From sequence record OQ791282: 47,865 nucleotides of DNA; one strand, 5' to 3'. The DNA comes from Shigella phage Henu10. Each line of letters opens with the position of its first letter. The first letter of the stretch is position 1. The position numbers and the translations under genes are program-made. The notes under the pieces were generated by a model. That model was not told the origin of the DNA. It saw only the letters and a list, made by a program, of their open reading frames with translations, and did not search any database. Positions 8,735-46,100 of this stretch are shown here, piece by piece.

Positions 8735-9454
8735 ATGAAAGCGTTAATCAAAATTACAGAACAAAACGGAAAACAAGCCGTGTCAGCTAGAGAGTTACAC
8801 TCTTTTTTAGAGATAAAAGATAAATTCACAGATTGGATAAAGCGAATGTTTGAGTATGGATTTATTGAAAACATTGATTATCAGATTTTATCGGATTTTT
8901 CCGAAAAAATAGGCAGAGGTCGTCCATCGGTTGATTACGCCCTTACACTAGATTGTGCAAAAGAGATTTCAATGTTACAGAGAAGCGAAAAAGGCAAACA
9001 AGCGAGGCGTTACTTCATAGAGTGCGAAAAGAAACTCCGCACAGGGGCTTACGCTTTACCACAGACCTTTGCAGAAGCATTGAAATTAGCCGCCCAACAA
9101 GCAGAGCGTATAGAATTGCAACAGGCAGAACTCAAAAAACAAGCCCCGAAAGTGGCTTATTATGAAGAAGTATTGCAAAGCGAAAGCACTTATAATACCA
9201 ATCAAATAGCAAAAGAGTTAGGTATGAGTGCCATTACGCTTAACAAAAAGTTACAAGATTTAAAAGTTCAGTATCGGCAAGGTGGCACTTGGCTACTCTA
9301 CCACAAATATCAAAATAAAGGCTATACGAAAACTAAAACGCATACCTATACCGATACTAAAGGGGCAACCCAAACCAGTATGCAGACGGTATGGACTGAA
9401 AAAGGGCGTTTATTTATACACGAGGCTTTATCTAAACGCTTACAAAGTGCCTGA
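8735..9454 (+). CDS. AntA/AntB-family phage antirepressor
   Basis: N-terminus MKALIKITEQNGKQAVSARELHSFLEIKDKFTDWIKRMFEYGFIENIDYQ matches the AntA N-terminal domain; paralogue at 22775..23524. Confidence 0.65.
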   Translation: MKALIKITEQNGKQAVSARELHSFLEIKDKFTDWIKRMFEYGFIENIDYQILSDFSEKIGRGRPSVDYALTLDCAKEISMLQRSEKGKQARRYFIECEKKLRTGAYALPQTFAEALKLAAQQAERIELQQAELKKQAPKVAYYEEVLQSESTYNTNQIAKELGMSAITLNKKLQDLKVQYRQGGTWLLYHKYQNKGYTKTKTHTYTDTKGATQTSMQTVWTEKGRLFIHEALSKRLQSA

Positions 9455-14513: not shown

Positions 14514-14621
14514 AGATAAATGGTTATTAGTTTTTTAGTATCTTTGTGTTACAAAACTACTTTAAGTAATAACTCCTTACAATAGGAAAACCAAATAAAT
14601 AGCGTTAAAAATTAAATTTCT

Positions 14622-14645
14622 GATTTTAAAAGCGTGTTTTAAAAT
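14622..14645. repeat. 25-bp dyad-symmetric motif, copy 2 (GATTTTAAAAGCGTGTTTTAAAAT)
   Basis: Same arms and core (opposite core orientation) as 6240..6264; abuts ATG 14646. Confidence 0.6.
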
Positions 14646-18171: not shown

Positions 18172-18263
18172 AATGATATATTAGTGATAATCACAAAATT
18201 AACTATACCAAAAACCGCTAACAATAGCAATAGGGGAGGATTTGGCAGAAAAACTAAATTTTC

Positions 18264-18284
18264 GATTTTAAAAGCGTGTTTTAT
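18264..18284. repeat. Dyad-symmetric motif, copy 3 (GATTTTAAAAGCGTGTTTTAT)
   Basis: Directly downstream of terL stop and about 90 bp upstream of portal start. Confidence 0.55.
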
Positions 18285-19583
18285 TTACAAAATACTCGCA
18301 ATCTGCTGTAAATCGTTTTGGATAGGTTCGTCAAGTTCTATAAAGCCGTAACGAAGAGCATCTATCAAGTGGTTATGTTTGTCAATAGGGATACCAGCTT
18401 TTTTATCGTTCCAAGCGTAATTGCGGAGTTCCTTTTTGAGGTTATGGCTATTCTCGGTTACAATAATTTGATATTCTAACATTTTTAAAATAGAGGCGGA
18501 CACGATGCCAGGCTTTTTCTTTGTTGGTTTTATGTTTAATCCTTTTTTACGCAAGTCCTCAATTAGTCGTGGCTCAGCACTATCGCCTACTATTAAATCA
18601 TTTTCTCGGTCTATAAGGCTTTTATTTAGCAGATACAAATCATCTGTTGAGAGTTGATTGTTTCCGTAATATTTCTCATCAGCATAGATAATTTTTCTTT
18701 TGTGGTCAATAGCTACCTTAACTAATGTATCTGGGTCTATGCTAAATCCGTAATCTTGACCATAGCAGTAAGGAATAGATGTGTCAAAGTCGCCTTCCTT
18801 CCAATTAGTAAAGATAACGCCCTCTGCCATATCAGACCACCTGCCTATGATTTTTTGAGCGTACTTGCTCTTATTGAATAGGGCTTGGTCTAATTTACCG
18901 TTTATAGTACACTGCTCTATACTTTCCTGTTTTATACGCTCTATATTAGACAAGAATTGTTCTGACAAGTTCTCTATGTTGTCTAAATAGGTCGTGTGGA
19001 TATGTAGGACATCGGGGTGGGTGCTTATCTGTACATCTACACCGTCAATCTGTACTATCTTATGGGTATTTTCAATATATTTTTTATAAATAAAATGGTC
19101 GGAGTCGGTAGGGTTGAGTATCAGTATAACTCTTAATTGTTTATTTTTCTGACGAATGGATAGGATTAACTTTTCGTAATCTTCCTCGTTTTCCCACTCT
19201 TCCATTTCATCGCCCACGAAGGTGGTTATCCCCTGTATGGATTTAAGGTTTGCTGTTTGGTTTCCTGACGAAGTTTTTATCCCTCTAAATAAAATACTAC
19301 TTCCTGAAAATTTATTTAGTATTTCATTGTTTGTTACTGTAAAATACTCCTGCACGCCCTCTTTTTCTATTTTTTCCTCAAACTCTGGAATGATAGAAAT
19401 ACGAGCGGAGGTCATCGTGTAACGGCTAAAGAGCATCTTATGCCCAGCTTCAAAAGATAATCGCTCTACAAAGGTAGTCGCATTATAGGATTTTGCAGAC
19501 CCTCTACCTCCAGTAAGGAGTATAATAAACTTGTCTTTGTTGGTGTAAAGAGGGTTATATACTTCTTGTGTTTTTATTGGCAT
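18285..19583 (-). CDS. terL: Terminase large subunit
   Basis: 432 aa; Walker A LLTGGRGSAKS near N-terminus; nuclease-type C-terminal half; follows small subunit. Confidence 0.8.
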   Translation of the reverse strand: MPIKTQEVYNPLYTNKDKFIILLTGGRGSAKSYNATTFVERLSFEAGHKMLFSRYTMTSARISIIPEFEEKIEKEGVQEYFTVTNNEILNKFSGSSILFRGIKTSSGNQTANLKSIQGITTFVGDEMEEWENEEDYEKLILSIRQKNKQLRVILILNPTDSDHFIYKKYIENTHKIVQIDGVDVQISTHPDVLHIHTTYLDNIENLSEQFLSNIERIKQESIEQCTINGKLDQALFNKSKYAQKIIGRWSDMAEGVIFTNWKEGDFDTSIPYCYGQDYGFSIDPDTLVKVAIDHKRKIIYADEKYYGNNQLSTDDLYLLNKSLIDRENDLIVGDSAEPRLIEDLRKKGLNIKPTKKKPGIVSASILKMLEYQIIVTENSHNLKKELRNYAWNDKKAGIPIDKHNHLIDALRYGFIELDEPIQNDLQQIASIL

Positions 19584-22185: not shown

Positions 22186-22372
22186 TTTTCTATTTTTTTT
22201 AATTGTTGTTTCATTCTTTCTATTAACTCAATGTGTTCTACTAACTTACCCCTTGTCTTTGTTTTGTACTTCTGTATGGCTTTTGCTTCAATCATTACTT
22301 TACAAAAGTAGTCTTAATCTATTATATTTCAAATATTAAAGCGTGTATAAATTCAAAAAAAATAAAGATTTT

Positions 22373-22396
22373 GATTTTAAAACACGCTTTTAAATT
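22373..22396. repeat. Dyad-symmetric motif, copy 4 (GATTTTAAAACACGCTTTTAAATT)
   Basis: Immediately downstream of the 22398..22712 stop; a degenerate half-copy at 22336..22352. Confidence 0.55.
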
Positions 22397-22774: not shown

Positions 22775-23524
22775 TTAGGCACTTTGTAGGTGTTTGAGAA
22801 ATTTGTTTACAAAATAAACCTGCCCTTTGCCTGTTACCTTTGTGGTTATGGTGGTATGCATAACGCCACCGCTACCTGAACGAGTGCCTTTTTTGAGTTC
22901 AAAAATACCCTGTTCTACATATTTTTGATTGGGTATGTTGTAGCGTTCGCCTTTACGCCCCAAATAGCCATTTTCTCTTAGGTATTTGAACAATCGCCGT
23001 TCGCCTATCTCGTAACCGTTTTGAGTAATTACTTTGGCTAACTCGCCAATAAGACACGAGGTCTTACTACCCATTACCGCCTCTGTAAATAATACCTTTG
23101 GGGCTTGTGCTTCAAGTTGAGCTTGTTGCTCTTGATTTTGCAAGAGTAATACCTCTTTTTCTTCTTCTTTCTTGATGAGTTCAAGTAAGGCTTCTTTGTA
23201 GGTGGTGGGTAGGGTGGTTTTAAGTTTCTTCTCACACTCTATGAAGTAACGCCTCGCTTGTTTGCCTTTGTCGCTTCTCTGTAACATTGAAATCTCTTTT
23301 GCACAATCTAGCGTAAGGGCGTAATTTATTAAGGGGCGACCGCCGTTAGGTTTTTCGGAAAAATCCGATAAACTCTGATAGTCAATGTTTTCAATAAATC
23401 CATACTCAAACATTCGCTTTATCCAATCTGCGAATTTATCTTTTATCTCTAAAAAAGAGTGTAACTCTCTAGCTGACACGGCTTGTTTGCCATTTTGTTC
23501 TGTAATTTTGATTAACGCTTTCAT
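22775..23524 (-). CDS. AntA/AntB-family phage antirepressor (paralogue of 8735..9454)
   Basis: First ~100 aa nearly identical to the 8735 product; C-terminal half diverged. Confidence 0.65.
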   Translation of the reverse strand: MKALIKITEQNGKQAVSARELHSFLEIKDKFADWIKRMFEYGFIENIDYQSLSDFSEKPNGGRPLINYALTLDCAKEISMLQRSDKGKQARRYFIECEKKLKTTLPTTYKEALLELIKKEEEKEVLLLQNQEQQAQLEAQAPKVLFTEAVMGSKTSCLIGELAKVITQNGYEIGERRLFKYLRENGYLGRKGERYNIPNQKYVEQGIFELKKGTRSGSGGVMHTTITTKVTGKGQVYFVNKFLKHLQSA

Positions 23525-23526
23525 AG

Positions 23527-23847
23527 TTAGGCAGATTTAGTGTTAAGCAAAATATCATCTGTCAACAATTCTACATCTTCAAAAAAATCTTTAGGTAATC
23601 GGTTGTGCATCGCCCAAAGCAAAGAGGCTAAGTTGGCTACTCTTTGTTCAGCATTTTGGTAATACCCTTTGCGAATTTCGCCTGTAAGCATATCCATTTG
23701 CTCTGTAACTAGGTAAAATAGATTGTCTTGGTCTACACCAAAACAAGAGTTAAACTCAGATAGGCGTTTTGCTCTATCAATGGTTTTTTGGTTTTGCACC
23801 TCGCTACTGTTGTTTGCGGTTGGTGCGGTTGTTTGATGGTTTAACAT
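23527..23847 (-). CDS. Hypothetical protein (first gene of second antirepressor cassette)
   Basis: N-terminus MLNHQTTAPTANNSSEVQ paralogous to 8340..8732. Confidence 0.5.
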   Translation of the reverse strand: MLNHQTTAPTANNSSEVQNQKTIDRAKRLSEFNSCFGVDQDNLFYLVTEQMDMLTGEIRKGYYQNAEQRVANLASLLWAMHNRLPKDFFEDVELLTDDILLNTKSA

Positions 23848-31845: not shown

Positions 31846-32622
31846 TTAAACGCTCCAAATTCCGTAAGTCTTCTTCTTTTCTGTGGCTTTTTGAGAGGTT
31901 GTATTTTTGTACTTGTCTAGGGTTACGGGACGGCTAAAAAATTCAGGTGTTAGGTATTTATAGCCTTGTTCCATATGGTATTTGTCCTTTACCGCATTTT
32001 CGATAGCCTCCAGTATATCCTCTTTTGTGTAGCCTTCTTTCAATCTAGCCTTGTACTTTCTCTTTATTTGGTCGTTTATCGTTTTAAACTTGCGTTTTGT
32101 TTTGTCGCTTATGAAGTTTAATAGCTTTTCAAAGTCTATATCGTTATTGGGCTTCGCTTTTCCCTCTTCTTCCAAATCCGAAAGAGACCCTTTTGGTTCT
32201 TTTTCTAAAAGAACATTTAGTTTAGTTTTATTTAGTTTATTGTTAGTATCAGAAACTGTATCAAGAACCGTATCAGAAACCGTGTCAATATCTGTATCAG
32301 AAACTGTATCAAGAACCGTGTCAGCTGTTGATACAGTTGGAAAAACATATTTAGTTTGTCCGTCTATTCCCTTGCTTCTTTTTTGCGGTGTTTTAAAGTC
32401 AATAAGTCCTAATTGCATCAATCTATTTCTAGCATCTCTAACAGTATTAACTGACATTCCAAGTGCGATACTTAAATGTCTGTCGGAATGCCCAAAGGGT
32501 TGCTTCCAGCCCAACGAATTACAAGTATGCAACAGATAGAAGTATAATCTTGTGTCGTTAGGGCTGATGCAACGCTCTAAGTTGCATTGCCAAAATTTGT
32601 TTATGAGAACTATATAATTCAT
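31846..32622 (-). CDS. Replication initiation protein (N-terminal HTH, repeat linker, conserved phage C-terminal domain)
   Basis: Peptide repeats DTVLDTVSDTDIDTVSDTVLDTVSDT encoded by iteron-like DNA repeats; C-terminal region resembles conserved phage replication-protein C-terminal domains. Confidence 0.5.
   Translation of the reverse strand: MNYIVLINKFWQCNLERCISPNDTRLYFYLLHTCNSLGWKQPFGHSDRHLSIALGMSVNTVRDARNRLMQLGLIDFKTPQKRSKGIDGQTKYVFPTVSTADTVLDTVSDTDIDTVSDTVLDTVSDTNNKLNKTKLNVLLEKEPKGSLSDLEEEGKAKPNNDIDFEKLLNFISDKTKRKFKTINDQIKRKYKARLKEGYTKEDILEAIENAVKDKYHMEQGYKYLTPEFFSRPVTLDKYKNTTSQKATEKKKTYGIWSV
32246..32336. repeat. Iteron-like direct repeats (putative origin) inside replication gene
   Basis: GTATCAGAAACTGTATCAAGAACCGT at 32246..32271 and 32294..32319, plus further GTATCA-type units and an inverted TGATAC. 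Confidence 0.5.
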
Positions 32623-36684: not shown

Positions 36685-37443
36685 ATGAAAAAGATAATAC
36701 AGAAAAGTATTAAAAATAATTTAAAGGATAGATTAAATACTGTTTATAACTATCTGAAAAAAACGACAGAATTTACAACGCAAACACTTTTAGCTGAGAA
36801 GATAGGATATACACGCTCTAATTTTTCAGCTGCATTAAATGGAGACGAGAGGTATCTAACAGAAGGTGTTGTTGATAAAATAGTGGAGGCTTTTCCGCAG
36901 TTAAATAGAGAGTGGTTCATAACGGGCAAAGGCGAAATGCTAAAGTCTTCAGAAGAAACTCCGATAAAAGGGGAGGGGGTAAAAGTAATTTTAGACGCAG
37001 AGATAAAAAGAACCCCATCGGAAGGCACACCTTATTATGATGTTGATTTTGCCGGAGGTTGGAACTCTGATGAGATTTTTTCACTTGGGAATCCATCATT
37101 TTATATCCAAAGTCCAGATTTTAGAAGGGCAGAGTTTGCTACTAATCTCGTGGGAAACTCTATATCAAAGATAATTCCCAGTGGAGCCATTGTAGGATTT
37201 AGACAAGTAGAGGATTGGAAAACTTATTTCCCAACAAATGAGCTGTATGGTATCATTACTAAAAACGAAATGAGAACCGTAAAAAGGGTAAAAAGAAAGA
37301 AAGGAGACTCAAATACACTTGTGTTGATTCCTGACCCATTAGAGGTTCATTCAGGATATGAGCCTGAGGAGTTGCCTATTGATTTTGTTTCAAAGATGTT
37401 TCAAGTGGTTGCTTGGGCAATGTTTGAGAGAGTAGCAATGTAA
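36685..37443 (+). CDS. CI-like repressor (HTH plus S24 LexA-like peptidase domain)
   Basis: N-terminal HTH (TQTLLAEKIGYTRSNFSAALNG); C-terminal GNSISKIIPSGAIVGF with downstream Lys-rich segment resembles the S24 Ser-Lys dyad region. Confidence 0.65.
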   Translation: MKKIIQKSIKNNLKDRLNTVYNYLKKTTEFTTQTLLAEKIGYTRSNFSAALNGDERYLTEGVVDKIVEAFPQLNREWFITGKGEMLKSSEETPIKGEGVKVILDAEIKRTPSEGTPYYDVDFAGGWNSDEIFSLGNPSFYIQSPDFRRAEFATNLVGNSISKIIPSGAIVGFRQVEDWKTYFPTNELYGIITKNEMRTVKRVKRKKGDSNTLVLIPDPLEVHSGYEPEELPIDFVSKMFQVVAWAMFERVAM

Positions 37444-37457
37444 TTAAAATAGAAATT

Positions 37458-37910
37458 ATGAGTCCTACTGAAAAAGGAAAGATATTTGAGGATTATGTTC
37501 AGGATATAATGTTTCCTGTTGATAGATATATAGTCGTTAGAAAGACGCCTAATTTTGAGGACGCAAGCAAACGATTGATAGAAGATTGCAATAATCCTGA
37601 TTTTACATTTAGAAGAATAAGAACAGGGAAGGAGTATAGCGTAGAGGCTAAATTCAGAATACCTAGAGGGTACAATGTTAATGTTTGTACGGAAGAACAG
37701 CTAGAGAGATATAGAAAGTATGATGAGCAAAGCCCTACTTTTATGGCTTTAGGAATAGGAGGGTGTCCGTCTAGTCCTACGATATTACTGTTTTTTCATA
37801 TAAGTAAGCTGGCGAGCACCAATATTTTCTTACCTGATTTCTTTAAGGATAATTATTTCAGATTGAACAGCCCTGTATTTTCTAAGTATATGGAAAAATT
37901 ATTAAGATGA
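37458..37910 (+). CDS. PD-(D/E)xK-like nuclease-fold protein, putative
   Basis: IFEDYV ... NNPDFTF ... SVEAKF gives an E / PD / ExK pattern with canonical spacing. Confidence 0.35.
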   Translation: MSPTEKGKIFEDYVQDIMFPVDRYIVVRKTPNFEDASKRLIEDCNNPDFTFRRIRTGKEYSVEAKFRIPRGYNVNVCTEEQLERYRKYDEQSPTFMALGIGGCPSSPTILLFFHISKLASTNIFLPDFFKDNYFRLNSPVFSKYMEKLLR

Positions 37911-38176
37911 AAACAGCGATAGACGAAAGAATATTGAGCCTGCCGAGATACCTAAAGAAGAACGGAGAAATAAAAAGGCTCCAAGAGTTCTACGATGAAA
38001 TTGGAATTTCCAAGCAACGGTTTAATAAAATTAAAAAACAAGATATAAGTGGCATTAACGCACACTTTACCGTTGAGCAGATACACAAAATAGGAATAGT
38101 TTATGGCATTGATTTTAATTGGATTTTTGGGGTAACAGATACCCCTAGACAAAACACCAAAAGTGCACAAATTTAA
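37907..38176 (+). CDS. HTH protein (excisionase/regulator candidate)
   Basis: 89 aa; YDEIGISKQRFNKIKKQ HTH-like; immediately upstream of the integrase. Confidence 0.4.
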   Translation: MKTAIDERILSLPRYLKKNGEIKRLQEFYDEIGISKQRFNKIKKQDISGINAHFTVEQIHKIGIVYGIDFNWIFGVTDTPRQNTKSAQI

Positions 38177-38228
38177 AAAAAAGTCAAAACAAAACTATAT
38201 TGATTATCAATAAATTAAAATTTCAAAA

Positions 38229-39545
38229 ATGGCAAAAAATGGTCAAAAAGTTTCCCTCTCTCTCCGCAAAAAGGAGTTAAGCCGTTGTAAATCAACGGTT
38301 TTGCTTTATAAAACAGGTCTTAAAGCACAAAAGTGCACAAATTCCATTTCCGCTACCCCTAATGTCCAACACTTTAATTTGGACGAAATGGAAAATTATT
38401 GGACTAATCCCAAAGTGAAACATTACCCCTTAGAAACAGGTAAGGATTGGTATGTTTGGTTTCGATTTAACGGAGGTAATCCCATTAGAGTAAAGCAAGG
38501 GCTTAATCAGATTCCAGAATTTGAGGAAAGGCTGCAAGAGGCTTATGCAATGGCAGATGTCATAAGAGAAAGGCTAGAGAGTGGTTGGGTTCCTCAAAGT
38601 GCTAAAGTGAGGGTAAAAAGGATAAATCTTATAGATGCCGTTATATTTGGCTTTGAGGAAAAAAAGAAAACTCTTTCAAAAAACAGCATCGATAATTTTA
38701 GAAGCTCTGTCAATTTCTTTATTGAAGCGGTCAAGGAGTTGCAATATCACAGAATGCAGGTGTCTAGTTTTGAAAGGATACAAGCTAAAGAGGTTCTGGA
38801 ACATCTAAAAAATGAGAAAGGCTGGTCTAACAAGACTTATAATAAACATCTTGGTTTTTTAAGGTCTGTTTTTCACGAAATACTTGACGCTGACTACATA
38901 AAAAGTAATCCATTTAGAGACATTAGAAATCTAAAGGTTCTAAAAAAAGAAGCAAATGTACCTCCAACAAATGAGGAGATGAAAGCTATATCTAACGCTT
39001 TGCAGGATTACTGTTTTGGGTTCTATGTCTTTTGTTCCACTATCTATTATTGCGGTATCCGTCCTGCGGAGTTGGTGCAAATGAAAGTATCAATGCTAGA
39101 TTTGGATAACGAGCTAATCAATTTACCTGCTGAAATAACAAAAACAGATGCTGATAGGGTAGTACCCATAAGCGAAAACTTGAAAAGTCTATTTTCAAAA
39201 TTTAACCTTTCTAATCCTCATAATTATTTGTTTGGTACTTGCGTGCCGAATGGAGGAAGGCACGGTATTAAAAATAGATATTTTGAGCCTAATGAGTTCA
39301 AAGTAAAGGAAGACACAGCTAATAAGCTATGGCGTAGGCTGATAAAAGACGGCTTAGGCATTGACAAAAATATGTACTCCTTGAAGCACAAAGGAGCAGA
39401 CGATAAAATATTAGCAGGAATGCCTATTGAAACCATACAGGCTATATTTGGACACTCTACTCAAAAAATGACCGAGCGATATGCTAGGATAATGAAATTG
39501 CAAAGATTTGAAGAGGCTAAAAAAATAAAGTTGCCTTCTTTTTAG
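38229..39545 (+). CDS. int: Tyrosine integrase (true start may be ATG 38388)
   Basis: C-terminal catalytic region ...GHSTQKMTERYARI (H-x-x-x-T-x-x-Y); a terminator-like hairpin and a 16-bp direct repeat lie within the first 160 nt of the track ORF. Confidence 0.8.
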   Translation: MAKNGQKVSLSLRKKELSRCKSTVLLYKTGLKAQKCTNSISATPNVQHFNLDEMENYWTNPKVKHYPLETGKDWYVWFRFNGGNPIRVKQGLNQIPEFEERLQEAYAMADVIRERLESGWVPQSAKVRVKRINLIDAVIFGFEEKKKTLSKNSIDNFRSSVNFFIEAVKELQYHRMQVSSFERIQAKEVLEHLKNEKGWSNKTYNKHLGFLRSVFHEILDADYIKSNPFRDIRNLKVLKKEANVPPTNEEMKAISNALQDYCFGFYVFCSTIYYCGIRPAELVQMKVSMLDLDNELINLPAEITKTDADRVVPISENLKSLFSKFNLSNPHNYLFGTCVPNGGRHGIKNRYFEPNEFKVKEDTANKLWRRLIKDGLGIDKNMYSLKHKGADDKILAGMPIETIQAIFGHSTQKMTERYARIMKLQRFEEAKKIKLPSF

Positions 39546-39550
39546 ATAAA

Positions 39551-39581
39551 AACCGCGAGAATTTACAAAGTTCTCGCGGTT
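39551..39581. terminator. Bidirectional terminator between convergent int and Panacea-pair operons
   Basis: Perfect 11-bp stem AACCGCGAGAA / TTCTCGCGGTT with loop TTTACAAAG. Confidence 0.6.
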
Positions 39582-39586
39582 CTAGT

Positions 39587-40189
39587 TTATAATTTTTGTG
39601 AATCTTGTTTAGAGTATAACTCTTTTATCTCTTCTGTAACGATAGGTTCATAAAATTTTATAAAATCATCTATAACACTTTCGTCACATGAATTTTTATT
39701 ATAACCTACATAAATATTGTCTCTGATATTTCCTTTTTGTTTCATATCATATTCTTTTTTTATACAATTTCTTTTCAAAAAAGTATAAAAAACGCTCATT
39801 CTTCTGTTTAAATCCTCTTTTTGAGAGTGTTTGACATAGTTGTCATCTAATGCATAAAAACAAAAAGAATAACCCTTATGTTCTTCTATGCAAAGGTTAA
39901 AACATTCTCTGAATAGTCGTAAAGTTACCATAGGATTTATACAATCCCTACCTTTATTTCTTTTAAATTTTTTTATCCCTTTAGATTTGGAAAATTTAGT
40001 AAAATAAAAAGACAAAACAATTATTTTGTATTTTTCAAAACGCTCTAAAAGAATTATCCATCTATGCTTTTTGTCTTCATCACAAATAATGAGGCTATAT
40101 TCCTCTTCAACATAAAATACTCCGTGCTTGTCTTTATTGGAACTTTTAATCCTTTTTTTAGAAACTTTAAAATAACTCTTCCCCAACAT
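39587..40189 (-). CDS. Hypothetical protein, putative toxin partner of the Panacea-domain protein
   Basis: 200 aa, Cys- and Lys-rich; overlaps the upstream gene by 23 nt; no recognisable domain. Confidence 0.35.
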   Translation of the reverse strand: MLGKSYFKVSKKRIKSSNKDKHGVFYVEEEYSLIICDEDKKHRWIILLERFEKYKIIVLSFYFTKFSKSKGIKKFKRNKGRDCINPMVTLRLFRECFNLCIEEHKGYSFCFYALDDNYVKHSQKEDLNRRMSVFYTFLKRNCIKKEYDMKQKGNIRDNIYVGYNKNSCDESVIDDFIKFYEPIVTEEIKELYSKQDSQKL

Positions 40190-40679
40190 TACTGTTAAAA
40201 GTTGCTATCCCACATACATTGTGATTGACAACAGGTATCCTTCCGTTACCGTCCAATGAAAAATCAGAAATACTTTGTCCATCTATTTTTATTGTATTGG
40301 TAGATATTTGCTCAGGAGAAATTTCTCCTCTAGCATTTCTCCAAAGAGATTCACTATGAGTCAAATCTACTAACTCTAATCCTGTATATCCTCCATAAAT
40401 CTTCCAAATTTCATTCAGATGAGAAACGATTTCTTTATCACATATATCTTTTTCAATATATCTCTCATTTATTAAATCCCCTCTTCTTATAAACCTATAT
40501 TTATCCCAAACATTGCGAACAACAGGACCTAATACCCAAGCCTGTATTTCGTCTTTAAATAGCAAATTTCTATACTTAACAAAATACCAAACTTGAGAGT
40601 AAAATAGAAGTTTCTGTAACTTCAGTGGTGTTACTCCTTTTCTAATAAAGAAAAACGATATATCTACTGCGGAATACAC
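40167..40679 (-). CDS. Panacea-domain (DUF4065 / GepA-like) protein, PanA-like antitoxin candidate
   Basis: N-terminus MYSAVDISFFFIRKGVTPLKLQKLLFYSQVWYF...AWVLGPVVRNVWDKY matches the Panacea hallmark (T.LKLQKLLYYAQ ... AW..GPV); own TATATTTG promoter at 40720..40713. Confidence 0.55.
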   Translation of the reverse strand: MYSAVDISFFFIRKGVTPLKLQKLLFYSQVWYFVKYRNLLFKDEIQAWVLGPVVRNVWDKYRFIRRGDLINERYIEKDICDKEIVSHLNEIWKIYGGYTGLELVDLTHSESLWRNARGEISPEQISTNTIKIDGQSISDFSLDGNGRIPVVNHNVCGIATFNSNVGEELF

Positions 40680-43113: not shown

Positions 43114-46100
43114 TTATGAATAATTTGTTATTATACCTTTTCTAATGGTAAGCCATACTCCCCCCAAAAATAATTCTCCTGTATATCCTACCTCTCCACC
43201 CACACGAATATCTCCCGATTCTATATTTAAGGCAGTAGCATACTGTCCGTCAGCCCTTATAGATAGGGCGTTGTAGGGCGTATAATTGTTCACATCACGC
43301 CCCCAGAGCCGAAGTATATTGTTTTTATTTCCGTTTAAAATACTATCATCATTATTGATGAGAGCATAGCTTTCTCTCCCAGATGAAAGACTTTTTTTAT
43401 ATGAAAGTATGCTTCCAGATGACTTTATTTCTAAATAGTCGTTTGGGTCTGCTATTCCTTGCCCCGAAAGTGTATTTCCGCTAATATTGAACCTTGCTAT
43501 TTTACCACCTGTAATTTCCATATCAGAGCCATAAACTTTCCCATTATCCAGCACCCTAAATGGTGCATTATGTTTATTGGCGTAGTTCGCTCCTGCTCCA
43601 AATCTCACGCTCATTGCTCCCTCGTCGGTAATACCACTAATAAAAGCGTTTTGATTAGCTTGGTTGCTTCCGACTGACATCAAGTTAGCCATCATCAACC
43701 CGCCTTGAATAGAAGTGAAGTTGTCGGTCTTGGTCTTCACATCAGCCAAAGAGGTTTGCATATTAGCTATTCCTTGTTGAAGGTTGGCAAATAGTGCGTC
43801 CAAGTCTTCGGGGGCGGGTGTCCAATCGGTTGCTTTATTGCCTTTTTCAAGTTTTACATCTTTAAACCAAACTGTATTGTTGCTAAACGCTCTGAGTATA
43901 AAGATGAAATAGGCTGTGTCAGGCTGTGTCCTTATTGTGAAGTTCACATATTTATATTCTGAATTAACAGGGAACTCCCTGTAATTATCAGAATAAACAG
44001 TCGTATGAGTGCCGTTCTCTTTCATTTCTAATGCGTAGAAAAAAGCTGAACCTATCCCCTTAACAAAGGCTGATATTGTATATTCTGTGTTTTTCTCACA
44101 TTTTATATTTTGGTCTATTTGATTGTAAACTTGTCCATCTATCGAGGTTATTTTAACGCTCCTTTCATTAGGTAGAAACTCTGCTTGTGGATACCCTTTG
44201 CTCCAATGCTCTCCACCGTTTTTAAATTCAGTATTGCGAGCTAGGTTTCGACCACCAACAATTACTCCATTGATAGCATTATTAAGTTGAGATGTTGTTG
44301 CACCTCCACCATTACTCACTATTGCCGAAGCGTTTAGTAACTCTGTTTTGATATAGCCTCCCTGCACAATTGTGTTGCCGAGCATTGCTCTTTCTACGGA
44401 GTTCTGCCACGCCATTGTGCCGAGATTATTAAATTTGCTAGTAACCTCGTTTCTATGAGTATTTACCAACGCTTGAGCGTGTGCCTTAGCTTCTTCTAAC
44501 TTCGCCTTAGCTTCATTTATTCTCGCTTGTTCTTCGGCGGTCACTATACTATCTGCGTGAGCCTCTGCTTGCAACCTCGCCAAATTAGCTTTAGCTTCCG
44601 CCACAGCAATAGCTGATTGTTCAGCCTTATCAGCTTTTCCATCTGCGTAGGCTTTTATTAGCGTTTCCTTTAAGTTATCTTGTGCCTGTGCATACTCTTT
44701 AGCTAATTGCAGTTTCTGCTGGGCATCTGCAATCGCTCGTTGTTCTTCTTTGCTAACCTTTCCGTCAGCGTACGCTTCCGCCTGCGTCTTGGCTAAATTA
44801 GCCTGTGCCTGTGCGTAAGCATTAGAGGCTTGTGTTGCCTGTTGCTCGGCTCTTGTAATATCTGATTGTATATCTTCAGGAGCAGGTGTCCAATCAGTAG
44901 CTTTATTTCCTTTTTCTAACTTCCAATTTCTGTGGTAAATTTTTGCAGTTGCAGGAACACTTCCGTCATTATTCCATATCGCATATATGCCCATAAAACG
45001 AGTGTTGTTATATGGAGAATTTTCTATCTTCGTCCAAACATTCGCAGGACAAAATTTTCTATTATTCTCCCCAAAACCTATATACATATCGTGAGTGGGC
45101 TTTACTTCCATTGATTGGATAGTTTCCTGCCCTGTGAGGTCTTCCGTGAAAACACTTATATTATTGAGTAAATGAAAATAGGTAGAAATATAAAAATTAC
45201 CATTATTCACACTTGTTCCAGAAATCCATTTCACTCCATTTTCCTCTCCCTGTGTTAAGTCCCATGTTCTTCCGTTGTTGTTGAACATTCCGTATCCTTT
45301 TTGAGAACCCCTAAGGTAATTTCTACCTCCTACACTTACCGCATCCACCGCTTGTTGTATAGCACTCCCAACTTCCGCATAACCATTACCGCTTTTGAAC
45401 TTAATCGTTCCTGCTATTTCCCCACTATCCAAATCAAAATAGGTTTGTCCGTTGAGCGATTTAATTCTCCCTGCTGTTATTTGCCCTCCGTGCATAAATA
45501 CATTACCGTACATTGCTTCTGCTTCTCGTTTACTGTCTTTTGGTGTGTAGAGTAAGTAACACAAGAAGTAATAATAATCTGACCGACTATCAAACCTTAT
45601 CTGCTCGGTGGTGATATACCACATCGCATTACTACTTCCTCTTGAACATTTCGCATAAACGTAATAAACCTGATTCAATAAATCATTACGGCTGTATGGT
45701 AGTAAATTCCACTCTCTAATATCGTCTTCTAAAGAAAAATGAACCAACTTCCCACCACTAATAAATGTTCTTGCAGGATTACCCTCTATATTAGGATTCA
45801 GACTTATATTTTCTAATGCAAATTGTTGGCTCTTTGCTCCAACCGAAAGCATATTGGCTTCTATACTCTCTGGCTTGATATGTGTAGAGTCAAAGTAACC
45901 CTCTACATCAAAGACACTTTCTCGAAGCTCTTGCAGGTTACGATAACCGTTCAAGTAATTTCGTCGGTTAATTTGTTCCTGCGTTTTTATAACCGTTTTA
46001 GTATCTTTAATATCGGTAAGCAGACTTGCTACAAAGCTGATTTCGTAAGTGTCCGCAATGCCTATTTTGTAATTATATTCATCTAATAAGTCCCTCGTAA

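Follow-up and report, generated by a model that had tools for sequence, protein, structure and literature searches.

A probable lambda-type attP site, with candidate arm-type integrase sites and a predicted phage-supplied tRNA terminator, in a RAP44-like Riemerella phage genome

The DNA considered here (the window) is a stretch of 47,865 bp from sequence record OQ791282, deposited as Shigella phage Henu10, and it is about 100% identical to the Riemerella phages RAP44, CRP12 and PT15. Directly upstream of its integrase gene, int, lies a segment of about 190 bp (38152-38343) which, with good probability, serves a temperate, RAP44-like Riemerella phage as its attP site. It would be of the lambda type, with candidate arm-type integrase sites on both sides of a 19-bp core and a terminator for a host tRNA gene that the phage itself supplies. 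The surrounding region, 37900-38450, shows 96.6-100% identity to 19 RAP44-like Riemerella phage records, and the 438-aa open reading frame (ORF) that has been taken for the integrase matches, at 100% identity, the integrase annotated in Riemerella phage vB_RanS_CRP12. Positions are those of the window, and the attP elements, the integrase gene and its flanking features are on the + strand unless stated otherwise.

The att core was published earlier as a 19-bp attP/attB sequence at nucleotides 25-43 of a 1,317-bp annotated integrase gene (PMC9745183, PMC12169736). In the window this sequence, TCCCTCTCTCTCCGCAAAA, occurs once, at 38253-38271, and consists of the last approximately 15 nt of tRNA-Ser(UGA) plus trailing bases. 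We re-derived it from integration junctions. At the attL of a lysogen contig (L001), tRNA-Ser(UGA) was located at 557-642 by ARAGORN and is intact, the core occupies 628-646, and the sequence past the core is identical to the window from 38272 onward and continues into a 385-aa integrase gene. At the attR of R. anatipestifer ATCC 11845 (L002), the small gene orf89 and the first copy of the repeat described below precede the core, past which the contig continues as unrelated host DNA. Because the attL and attR flanks diverge at once on either side of the core, the identity block measures exactly 19 bp; it has been shown to be the 3' terminus of the host's tRNA-Ser(UGA) gene and the site of strand exchange. 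An earlier first-pass annotation, made from the window sequence alone, had suggested that the interval between two repeat copies holds integrase arm-type or regulatory sites, and had named an att core mapping elsewhere as evidence to the contrary; both the published work and the junctions place the core between the copies.

The repeat itself, the 16-mer CAAAAGTGCACAAATT, is present in the window as two exact copies at 38158-38173 and 38328-38343, with a spacing of 170 bp, precisely as the first-pass annotation had reported. Its remark that the copies are closer than chance would allow was also correct: any exact 16-mer pair separated by 300 bp or less arose in only 1.7% of 300 second-order Markov simulations of the window (a scan of the 16-mer allowing three mismatches yields a chance estimate that is uninformative for an exact pair and the k-mer simulation was used instead). 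The similarity of the two copies reaches 19 of 22 positions when 38152-38173 is compared with 38322-38343, and the repeat can be resolved into a 10-bp unit, AGTGCACAAA, arranged as tandem pairs. The candidate arm-type sites of the P arm (38152-38173, including the first 16-mer) read AAACACCAAA, a degenerate unit at 38152-38161, then a perfect AGTGCACAAA at 38162-38171, and those of the P' arm (38322-38343, including the second 16-mer) read AAAGCACAAA at 38322-38331 then AGTGCACAAA at 38332-38341. The centre of the perfect P-arm unit lies about 96 bp to the left of the core centre while the P' unit centres lie at +65 and +75 bp. The window contains 10 instances of the half-site GCACAAA, where 6 would be expected, and three of these, all on the + strand, fall within 177 bp at attP. 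Neither the repeats nor the core are touched by any substitution in phages CRP5, CRP19 or RAP44.

Further evidence on the function of the repeats came from 105 related integrase loci, fetched from species-representative genomes and IMG/VR, which belong to the Flavobacteriia, Chitinophagia and Bacteroidia and encode integrases with 22-70% identity. Layouts were counted for the 58 loci that had enough upstream sequence, using in-gene stretches as controls. A common order recurs among them, namely the 3' end of a tRNA or tmRNA gene, a hairpin, two tandem half-sites spaced 9-12 bp apart, and the start codon. Perfect tandem 8-mers at this spacing, in the region from -130 to -1, were found at 28 of the 58 loci compared with 5 of 58 controls, and when up to one mismatch was allowed the numbers rose to 49 and 13, respectively. 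The half-site differs between clades and includes GCACAAA, GGCACAAA, GAGAACA, AGAGTAAA, GTGAACA, GTGTACA, TACACAA, ATAACA, AACTCAAAC, CCGGAAC and others. Of 22 viral contigs with an intact attP, which hold only the tRNA 3' end and no tRNA, 16 carry the P' motif of that same locus again in the P arm, whereas motifs taken from unrelated loci turned up there in 13 of 332 tests. Moreover, the P-to-P' distance is 160-171 bp among the relatives, a range that includes the 170 bp of the window.

The identity of the motif appears to track the N-terminal domain of the integrase, and not its catalytic part or the target gene, although this relationship is correlative. Two copies of GCACA[AG] are found at just those loci that encode an N-domain at least 45% identical to that of the window, irrespective of the remainder of the protein; identities for the N-domain and C-terminal part, respectively, are 70% and 70% for L007, 65% and 32% for L052, 64% and 47% for L045, 53% and 40% for L038, 51% and 34% for L020, 49% and 38% for L051, and 45% and 40% for L010. 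The single exception is L008 (51% and 48%) which has a variant motif, ACAAAAGTTAACACA. Loci L009, L011 and L012 encode C-terminal parts of 46% identity, the highest after L007, L008 and L045, together with N-domains of only 33-36%, and their motif is GAGAACA or AGAGTAAA. The GCACAAA class occurs with tRNA-Ser(UGA), tRNA-Ser(GGA) and tmRNA targets, and AGAGTAAA with both tRNA-Ser(GGA) and tmRNA. This modular behaviour of motif and N-domain matches the prediction for a heterobivalent integrase, in which the N-domain determines arm specificity, and the core-binding and catalytic domains together determine core specificity (general scheme in PMC2817482). From these comparisons we infer that the two 16-mers are predicted arm-type integrase sites, and the first-pass suggestion that the interval holds such sites is strongly supported, on comparative grounds, by the tandem pairs, by their presence in both arms and by the N-domain relationship.

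The core lies inside the longest annotated form of the integrase gene. Three starts are used in public records, ATG 38229 giving 438 aa (CRP5, CRP19 and CRP12), TTG 38301 giving 414 aa (RAP44 RefSeq) and ATG 38388 giving 385 aa, and exactly this last protein is the called gene at attL in the lysogen contig. Almost all homologues (84 of 85) cover only residues from about 54 to 438 of the long ORF, are about 380-390 aa in length and, in the alignment, open with methionine at the M54 position with the consensus MKNxWTxPKxKxYP...WYVWFRF; they do not align through the first 53 residues, which the first-pass annotation had put forward as the observation that would count against a start at ATG 38388. 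The lone longer relative, P0018, has only KAQKCT in common with the extension, and this hexapeptide is candidate arm-site DNA (AAAGCACAAAAGTGCAC) in translation, so that it reflects conservation of DNA and not of protein. Within 38388-39545, synonymous to non-synonymous substitutions number 43:7 relative to RAP44, 48:17 relative to CRP5 and 46:5 relative to CRP19, whereas the 159-nt extension shows 1:3 (CRP5) and 0:2 (CRP19) and is identical in RAP44, a pattern indicating purifying selection only downstream of 38388. At attL, the reading frame 5' of M54 stops within the tRNA and lacks an ATG, and integration parts codons 1-14 of the 438-aa ORF from the remainder. The 53-aa extension (38229-38387, including TTG 38301) yielded no Pfam match at E values up to 10, and is best regarded as spurious, non-coding attP DNA. 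The homologues, the lysogen gene call and the substitution pattern therefore bear out the earlier proposal of ATG 38388 as the integrase start, with the 438-aa and 414-aa calls as over-extensions that read through attP by accident. The claim that integration disrupts the integrase gene (PMC12169736) is an annotation artefact.

Between the core and the P' arm sites lies the hairpin that the first-pass annotation had described, with stem CCGTTG (38282-38287) and CAACGG (38293-38298), loop TAAAT and a following TTTT, spanning 38282-38302, and it is located, as stated there, between the repeat copies and within the first 53 codons of the ORF 38229-39545. It forms the centre of a 14-bp structure at 38273-38307 (inner stem 38279-38301) with a folding energy (dG) of -15.8 kcal/mol and z -5.1, an equally good fold being found in none of 200 shuffles, and it is called by a terminator scan with 9 pairs, 4 of them GC. 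At attL, the inner stem starts about 8 nt past the core and about 13 nt past the tRNA discriminator base, while the host flank on the unoccupied side carries its own hairpin and T7 at the equivalent position (L002 6366-6412, dG -16.3). Base pairing is preserved by the changes 38283 C>T and 38299 T>C in CRP5, the CRP19 hairpin gains a G-C pair, and R. columbina shows a fully compensated longer stem with dG -17.8. A stem of at least 6 pairs with a T-rich tail is present between core and arm sites at 21 of the 58 loci, compared with 1 of 58 in-gene controls, and the stems of many relatives are classic terminators, for example CGGGAAGCC..GGCTTCCCG TTTTTTT. A search of Rfam with 37900-38500 gave no match. 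The best reading, based on the scan, the fold energy and the compensatory changes, is that the hairpin and its U-rich tail are a predicted intrinsic terminator supplied by the phage for the tRNA-Ser gene restored at attL; the first-pass annotation had given the hairpin no function.

Taken together, these elements suggest a mechanism in which the N-terminal domain of the integrase would bind the arm units, present as one tandem pair per arm, 170 bp apart and in like orientation, while the core-binding and catalytic domains hold the core, thereby folding attP into an intasome. Integration would leave the P' pair and the hairpin beside int at attL and the P units at attR, and this is the distribution observed in the lysogens L001 and L002. 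The hairpin with its U-rich tail would then replace the tRNA gene's own terminator in the lysogen, and it may keep transcripts from running on into int, be they from the tRNA gene (lysogen) or from the cI-like/orf89 operon (free phage). More speculatively, integrase bound at the P' pair might also repress int.

Several points weigh against this interpretation of 38152-38343. The upstream P-arm unit, AAACACCAAA, is degenerate, and the published work defines the 19-bp core only. The U-tract of the hairpin is short, interrupted (UUUUGCUUU) and partly paired with upstream bases, and because it is short the strength of the terminator is uncertain. For the int promoter, no sigma-70-like match was found at 38300-38387, and the Bacteroidetes -7 motif TAnnTTTG gave 2 hits upstream of int in the 58 loci, at no consistent position and without enrichment. 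The 16-mers could, in principle, be functionless, arising by chance or by recent duplication, given that they constitute a single pair of A-rich sequence in an AT-rich genome, but the rarity of such pairs in the simulated windows and, above all, the recurrence of the two-arm tandem layout with different sequences in dozens of diverged loci effectively refute this. A more serious alternative is that the units are bound by some other phage protein, whether an excisionase/directionality factor or a repressor, candidates being the orf89 product and the CI-like protein. Excisionase sites, such as those of lambda Xis, also typically consist of direct repeats in tandem with a spacing of about 10 bp, and an HTH-like (helix-turn-helix-like) ORF adjoins the P arm both in the window and in most intact attP loci. 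Known directionality-factor sites are usually confined to one arm, whereas here the motif is shared by both arms at a conserved distance across the core; it follows the identity of the integrase N-domain, and the P' pair is kept beside int in many integrated loci on bacterial contigs. Integration without excision by an int+attP fragment that truncates orf89 (PMC9745183) indicates that an accessory factor exists but, on balance, we consider it unlikely that the repeats are the sites of such a protein. We rejected an operator role for the repeat in the cI-like operon, since one of its copies is at the operon's 3' end and the two copies bracket the core with a spacing that is fixed throughout the family.

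The published reading of the 438-aa ORF (PMC12169736) is that it is real, with the free phage producing an extended integrase which integration truncates, the repeat and hairpin being incidental. The frame is indeed open from ATG 38229, stop-free 159-nt frames making up only 8.6% in the window, and several phage records are annotated in this way. Nevertheless, such an extension is hardly credible: no homologue carries it, P0018 sharing only translated arm-site DNA; it lacks a Pfam match and contains the att core, a stable hairpin and a repeat copy; its substitutions are mostly non-synonymous, unlike those in int; RefSeq selects a different start, TTG 38301; and the prophage form, with the 385-aa gene alone, still functions, given that the ATCC 11845 island spontaneously excises and circularises (PMC9745183). 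A related idea, that integration swaps the 5' end of the gene such that the free phage makes a 438-aa isoform and the prophage a 385-aa isoform, biasing the direction of recombination, is very improbable since the unconserved extension, and substitutions giving no sign of purifying selection, argue against it. As regards the hairpin, it could alternatively serve the intasome, either structurally or as an accessory-protein site (a bend or cruciform, for example), or be an RNA element controlling int. It falls within the stretch that an intasome would wrap, at only some 10 bp from the core, its U-tract is weak, and a hairpin is kept at this position in relatives whatever the target gene. We regard such roles as rather improbable because it is the pairing that is conserved rather than the sequence, many relatives show a GC-rich stem followed by T6-T9, and the host flank on the unoccupied side has an equivalent terminator at an equal distance from the tRNA end. 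The interpretation of 38152-38343 as attP, with arm-type sites and a predicted tRNA terminator, is retained in what follows.

The integrase encoded at 38388-39545 (385 aa) consists of an N-terminal domain of the beta3-alpha type (residues 1-64), a core-binding domain and a tyrosine-recombinase catalytic domain. It matches PF00589 (Pfam, E 4.3e-16) and phrog_1 integrase (E 1e-46), and Foldseek matches include Tn1549 Int, XerA and lambda Int, with E values of 1e-10 to 1e-9. Residues R225, K252, H356 and Y365 are invariant. Residues 1-64 form a separate domain of three strands and a helix in AF2 models (pLDDT 95), conserved in all homologues. This N-domain gave no Pfam match at E up to 10 and, when used alone with Foldseek, nothing below E 1, while an NCBIfam search with the full 385-aa integrase gave only generic Xer/integron matches under the cutoff, starting from residue ~92. 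Moreover, an invariant Y330-x-x-K333-H334 (YSLKHKGADD, window 39375-39389, 385-aa numbering) is present in all 56 homologues, and profile alignments to XerC-like, XerA and IntI4 proteins align the canonical H-x-L-R-H at Y330-K333-H334. These alignments indicate that His II is replaced by tyrosine, and the second catalytic arginine by lysine, in this integrase family. The RAP44 integrase is active in vivo despite these Tyr/Lys substitutions at catalytic positions (PMC9745183). A terminator-like hairpin, ACCGCGAGAA..TTCTCGCGGT, follows int at 39551-39581.

The P' pair lies 45-65 bp upstream of the int start codon. For KplE1 IntS, the integrase represses int, and the same has been proposed for tRNA-associated integrases generally (PMC2951348); the location of the arm sites between core and int start means that integrase binding could likewise repress its own gene here. 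Repression of int by integrase bound at the P' pair is thus a speculation, and autoregulation remains an analogy because no promoter was located. A second inverted repeat, GTCCAA N9 TTGGAC, at 38364-38384 ends 3 nt before ATG 38388 and is a candidate translational or operator element for int. Perfect inverted repeats of at least 6 bp ending at or overlapping the ATG were found at 31 of the 58 loci, against 10 of 116 controls; their position is fixed while the sequence varies among loci, and in many relatives the 3' arm takes in the ATG itself (CATTTTAATTT..AAATTAAAATG). The RNA fold of this repeat in the window is weak (-8.1 kcal/mol, z -2.0). This conserved position is additional support for the start codon and suggests that int is controlled translationally or through an operator.

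On the other side of the core, the cI-like operon closes with orf89 (37907-38176), a small HTH-like gene whose end coincides with the P-arm site. Its product and the N-terminus of the 252-aa CI-like repressor (36685-37443) both match phrog_9710 and are thus paralogous HTH-like domains; the repressor also matches phrog_4 and, weakly, S24 peptidase. Most intact attP loci have a comparable small ORF, with the ending ..N(F/A)NW.., ahead of the P arm, and an NCBIfam search with orf89 yielded nothing useful. The orf89 product is a candidate accessory factor or recombination directionality factor, which has some bearing on a published experiment in which an int+attP fragment integrated a suicide vector stably at attB, with no excision (PMC9745183). 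This fragment begins at 37976 (primer P7), within orf89, and its failure to excise fits the need for a directionality factor, encoded either elsewhere or by the truncated orf89. Because both arms are included, the fragment does not discriminate whether arm sites are required. Primer P8 of the same study is absent from the window, and the fragment's 3' boundary could therefore not be located.

The predicted site shares with lambda Int/attP a three-part integrase, with N-terminal, core-binding and catalytic domains, a repeated motif unrelated to the core on either side of it within about 100 bp, the attP here spanning about 190 bp, and an apparent need for an extra factor in excision (general scheme in PMC2817482; PMC9745183). 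It differs in that the arm motif is unrelated in sequence to that of lambda, there are two tandem pairs in one orientation instead of the 2 + 3 sites of lambda (P1, P2, P'1-P'3), the target is a tRNA 3' end, the N-domain lacks a Pfam arm-binding match and the catalytic signature is Y-x-x-K-H in place of H-x-x-R. As in KplE1, where attL of the tRNA-associated module overlaps the int promoter, int adjoins attL and reads away from the tRNA, with arm sites between the core and the int start (PMC2951348), but here a terminator hairpin separates the tRNA from the arm sites. With the CTnDOT IntDOT/attDOT system of Bacteroides, it has in common the phylum, an N-terminal arm-binding domain (predicted here), several arm sites and accessory proteins (PMC2817482). 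IntDOT, by contrast, uses five arm sites in an asymmetric arrangement and accepts mismatches within the overlap region, and CTnDOT is a conjugative transposon which does not target a tRNA 3' end (PMC2817482), the two being likened here by description. The integrase of Lactobacillus phage mv4, which also uses a tRNA-Ser 3' end, is presented as atypical for heterobivalent integrases (bioRxiv 10.1101/2023.11.06.565760); it belongs to a different host phylum and is again set beside the window integrase by description.

The mechanism proposed is the classical lambda scheme and will not surprise specialists. The analysis does, however, correct the integrase start in those RAP44-like Riemerella records that use the 438-aa or 414-aa call, as well as the published view that attP lies inside int and that the gene is fragmented by integration (PMC12169736), the core being upstream of the 385-aa gene. 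The approximately 190-bp attP defined here would help in shrinking and tuning the int-attP vector that is in use for integration in R. anatipestifer, a pathogen of poultry for which genetic tools are few (PMC9745183). More generally, the comparison reveals an attP layout shared across a large family of Bacteroidota integrases targeting tRNA-Ser, tRNA-Ala and tmRNA genes, and the loci provide a natural table of N-domain and arm-motif pairs which could guide specificity swaps.

Two additional features of the attachment sites were observed. A palindrome, TTGATTATCAA, lies at 38198-38208, where the AT-rich spacer of the P arm separates the arm site from the core; it was considered as a conserved accessory-factor site and dropped, given that few attP loci have comparable palindromes (L075, L076, L078 and, more weakly, L062). 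In the attR host flank of ATCC 11845 (L002 6366-6480), beyond its own terminator hairpin, a decayed copy of a related P' arm (AACAAAAGTAAACAAATT, then CCATTTTCGCTACTCCTAATGTCCAA) is not followed by an integrase gene and looks like a relic of an earlier integration. Its variant motif, TAAACAA, is the working arm motif of the relative L026.

Beside int, on the - strand at 39587-40679, a 170-aa protein with a SocA/Panacea antitoxin domain (PF13274, E 3e-17) is encoded together with a downstream, overlapping 200-aa ORF that has no family match, and the pair may be a toxin-antitoxin system or defence cargo at the prophage end. Elsewhere in the window, about 6.5 tandem copies of a 12-bp unit, GTATCAGAAACY, at 32246-32324 could be iterons or a coding repeat, while a 67-nt element with the palindrome TTTTAAAACACGCTTTTAAAA is present in four copies, at 6195-6261, 14577-14643, 18219-18285 and 22328-22394, which may be recurring intergenic regulatory or terminator elements. 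In addition, there are long internal repeats with 91-97% identity, 1-253 matching 44002-44254 and 43804-44103 matching 47541-47840, and the same set includes an inverted pair of 334 nt, 8703-9036 and 23223-23556, separated by 14 kb.

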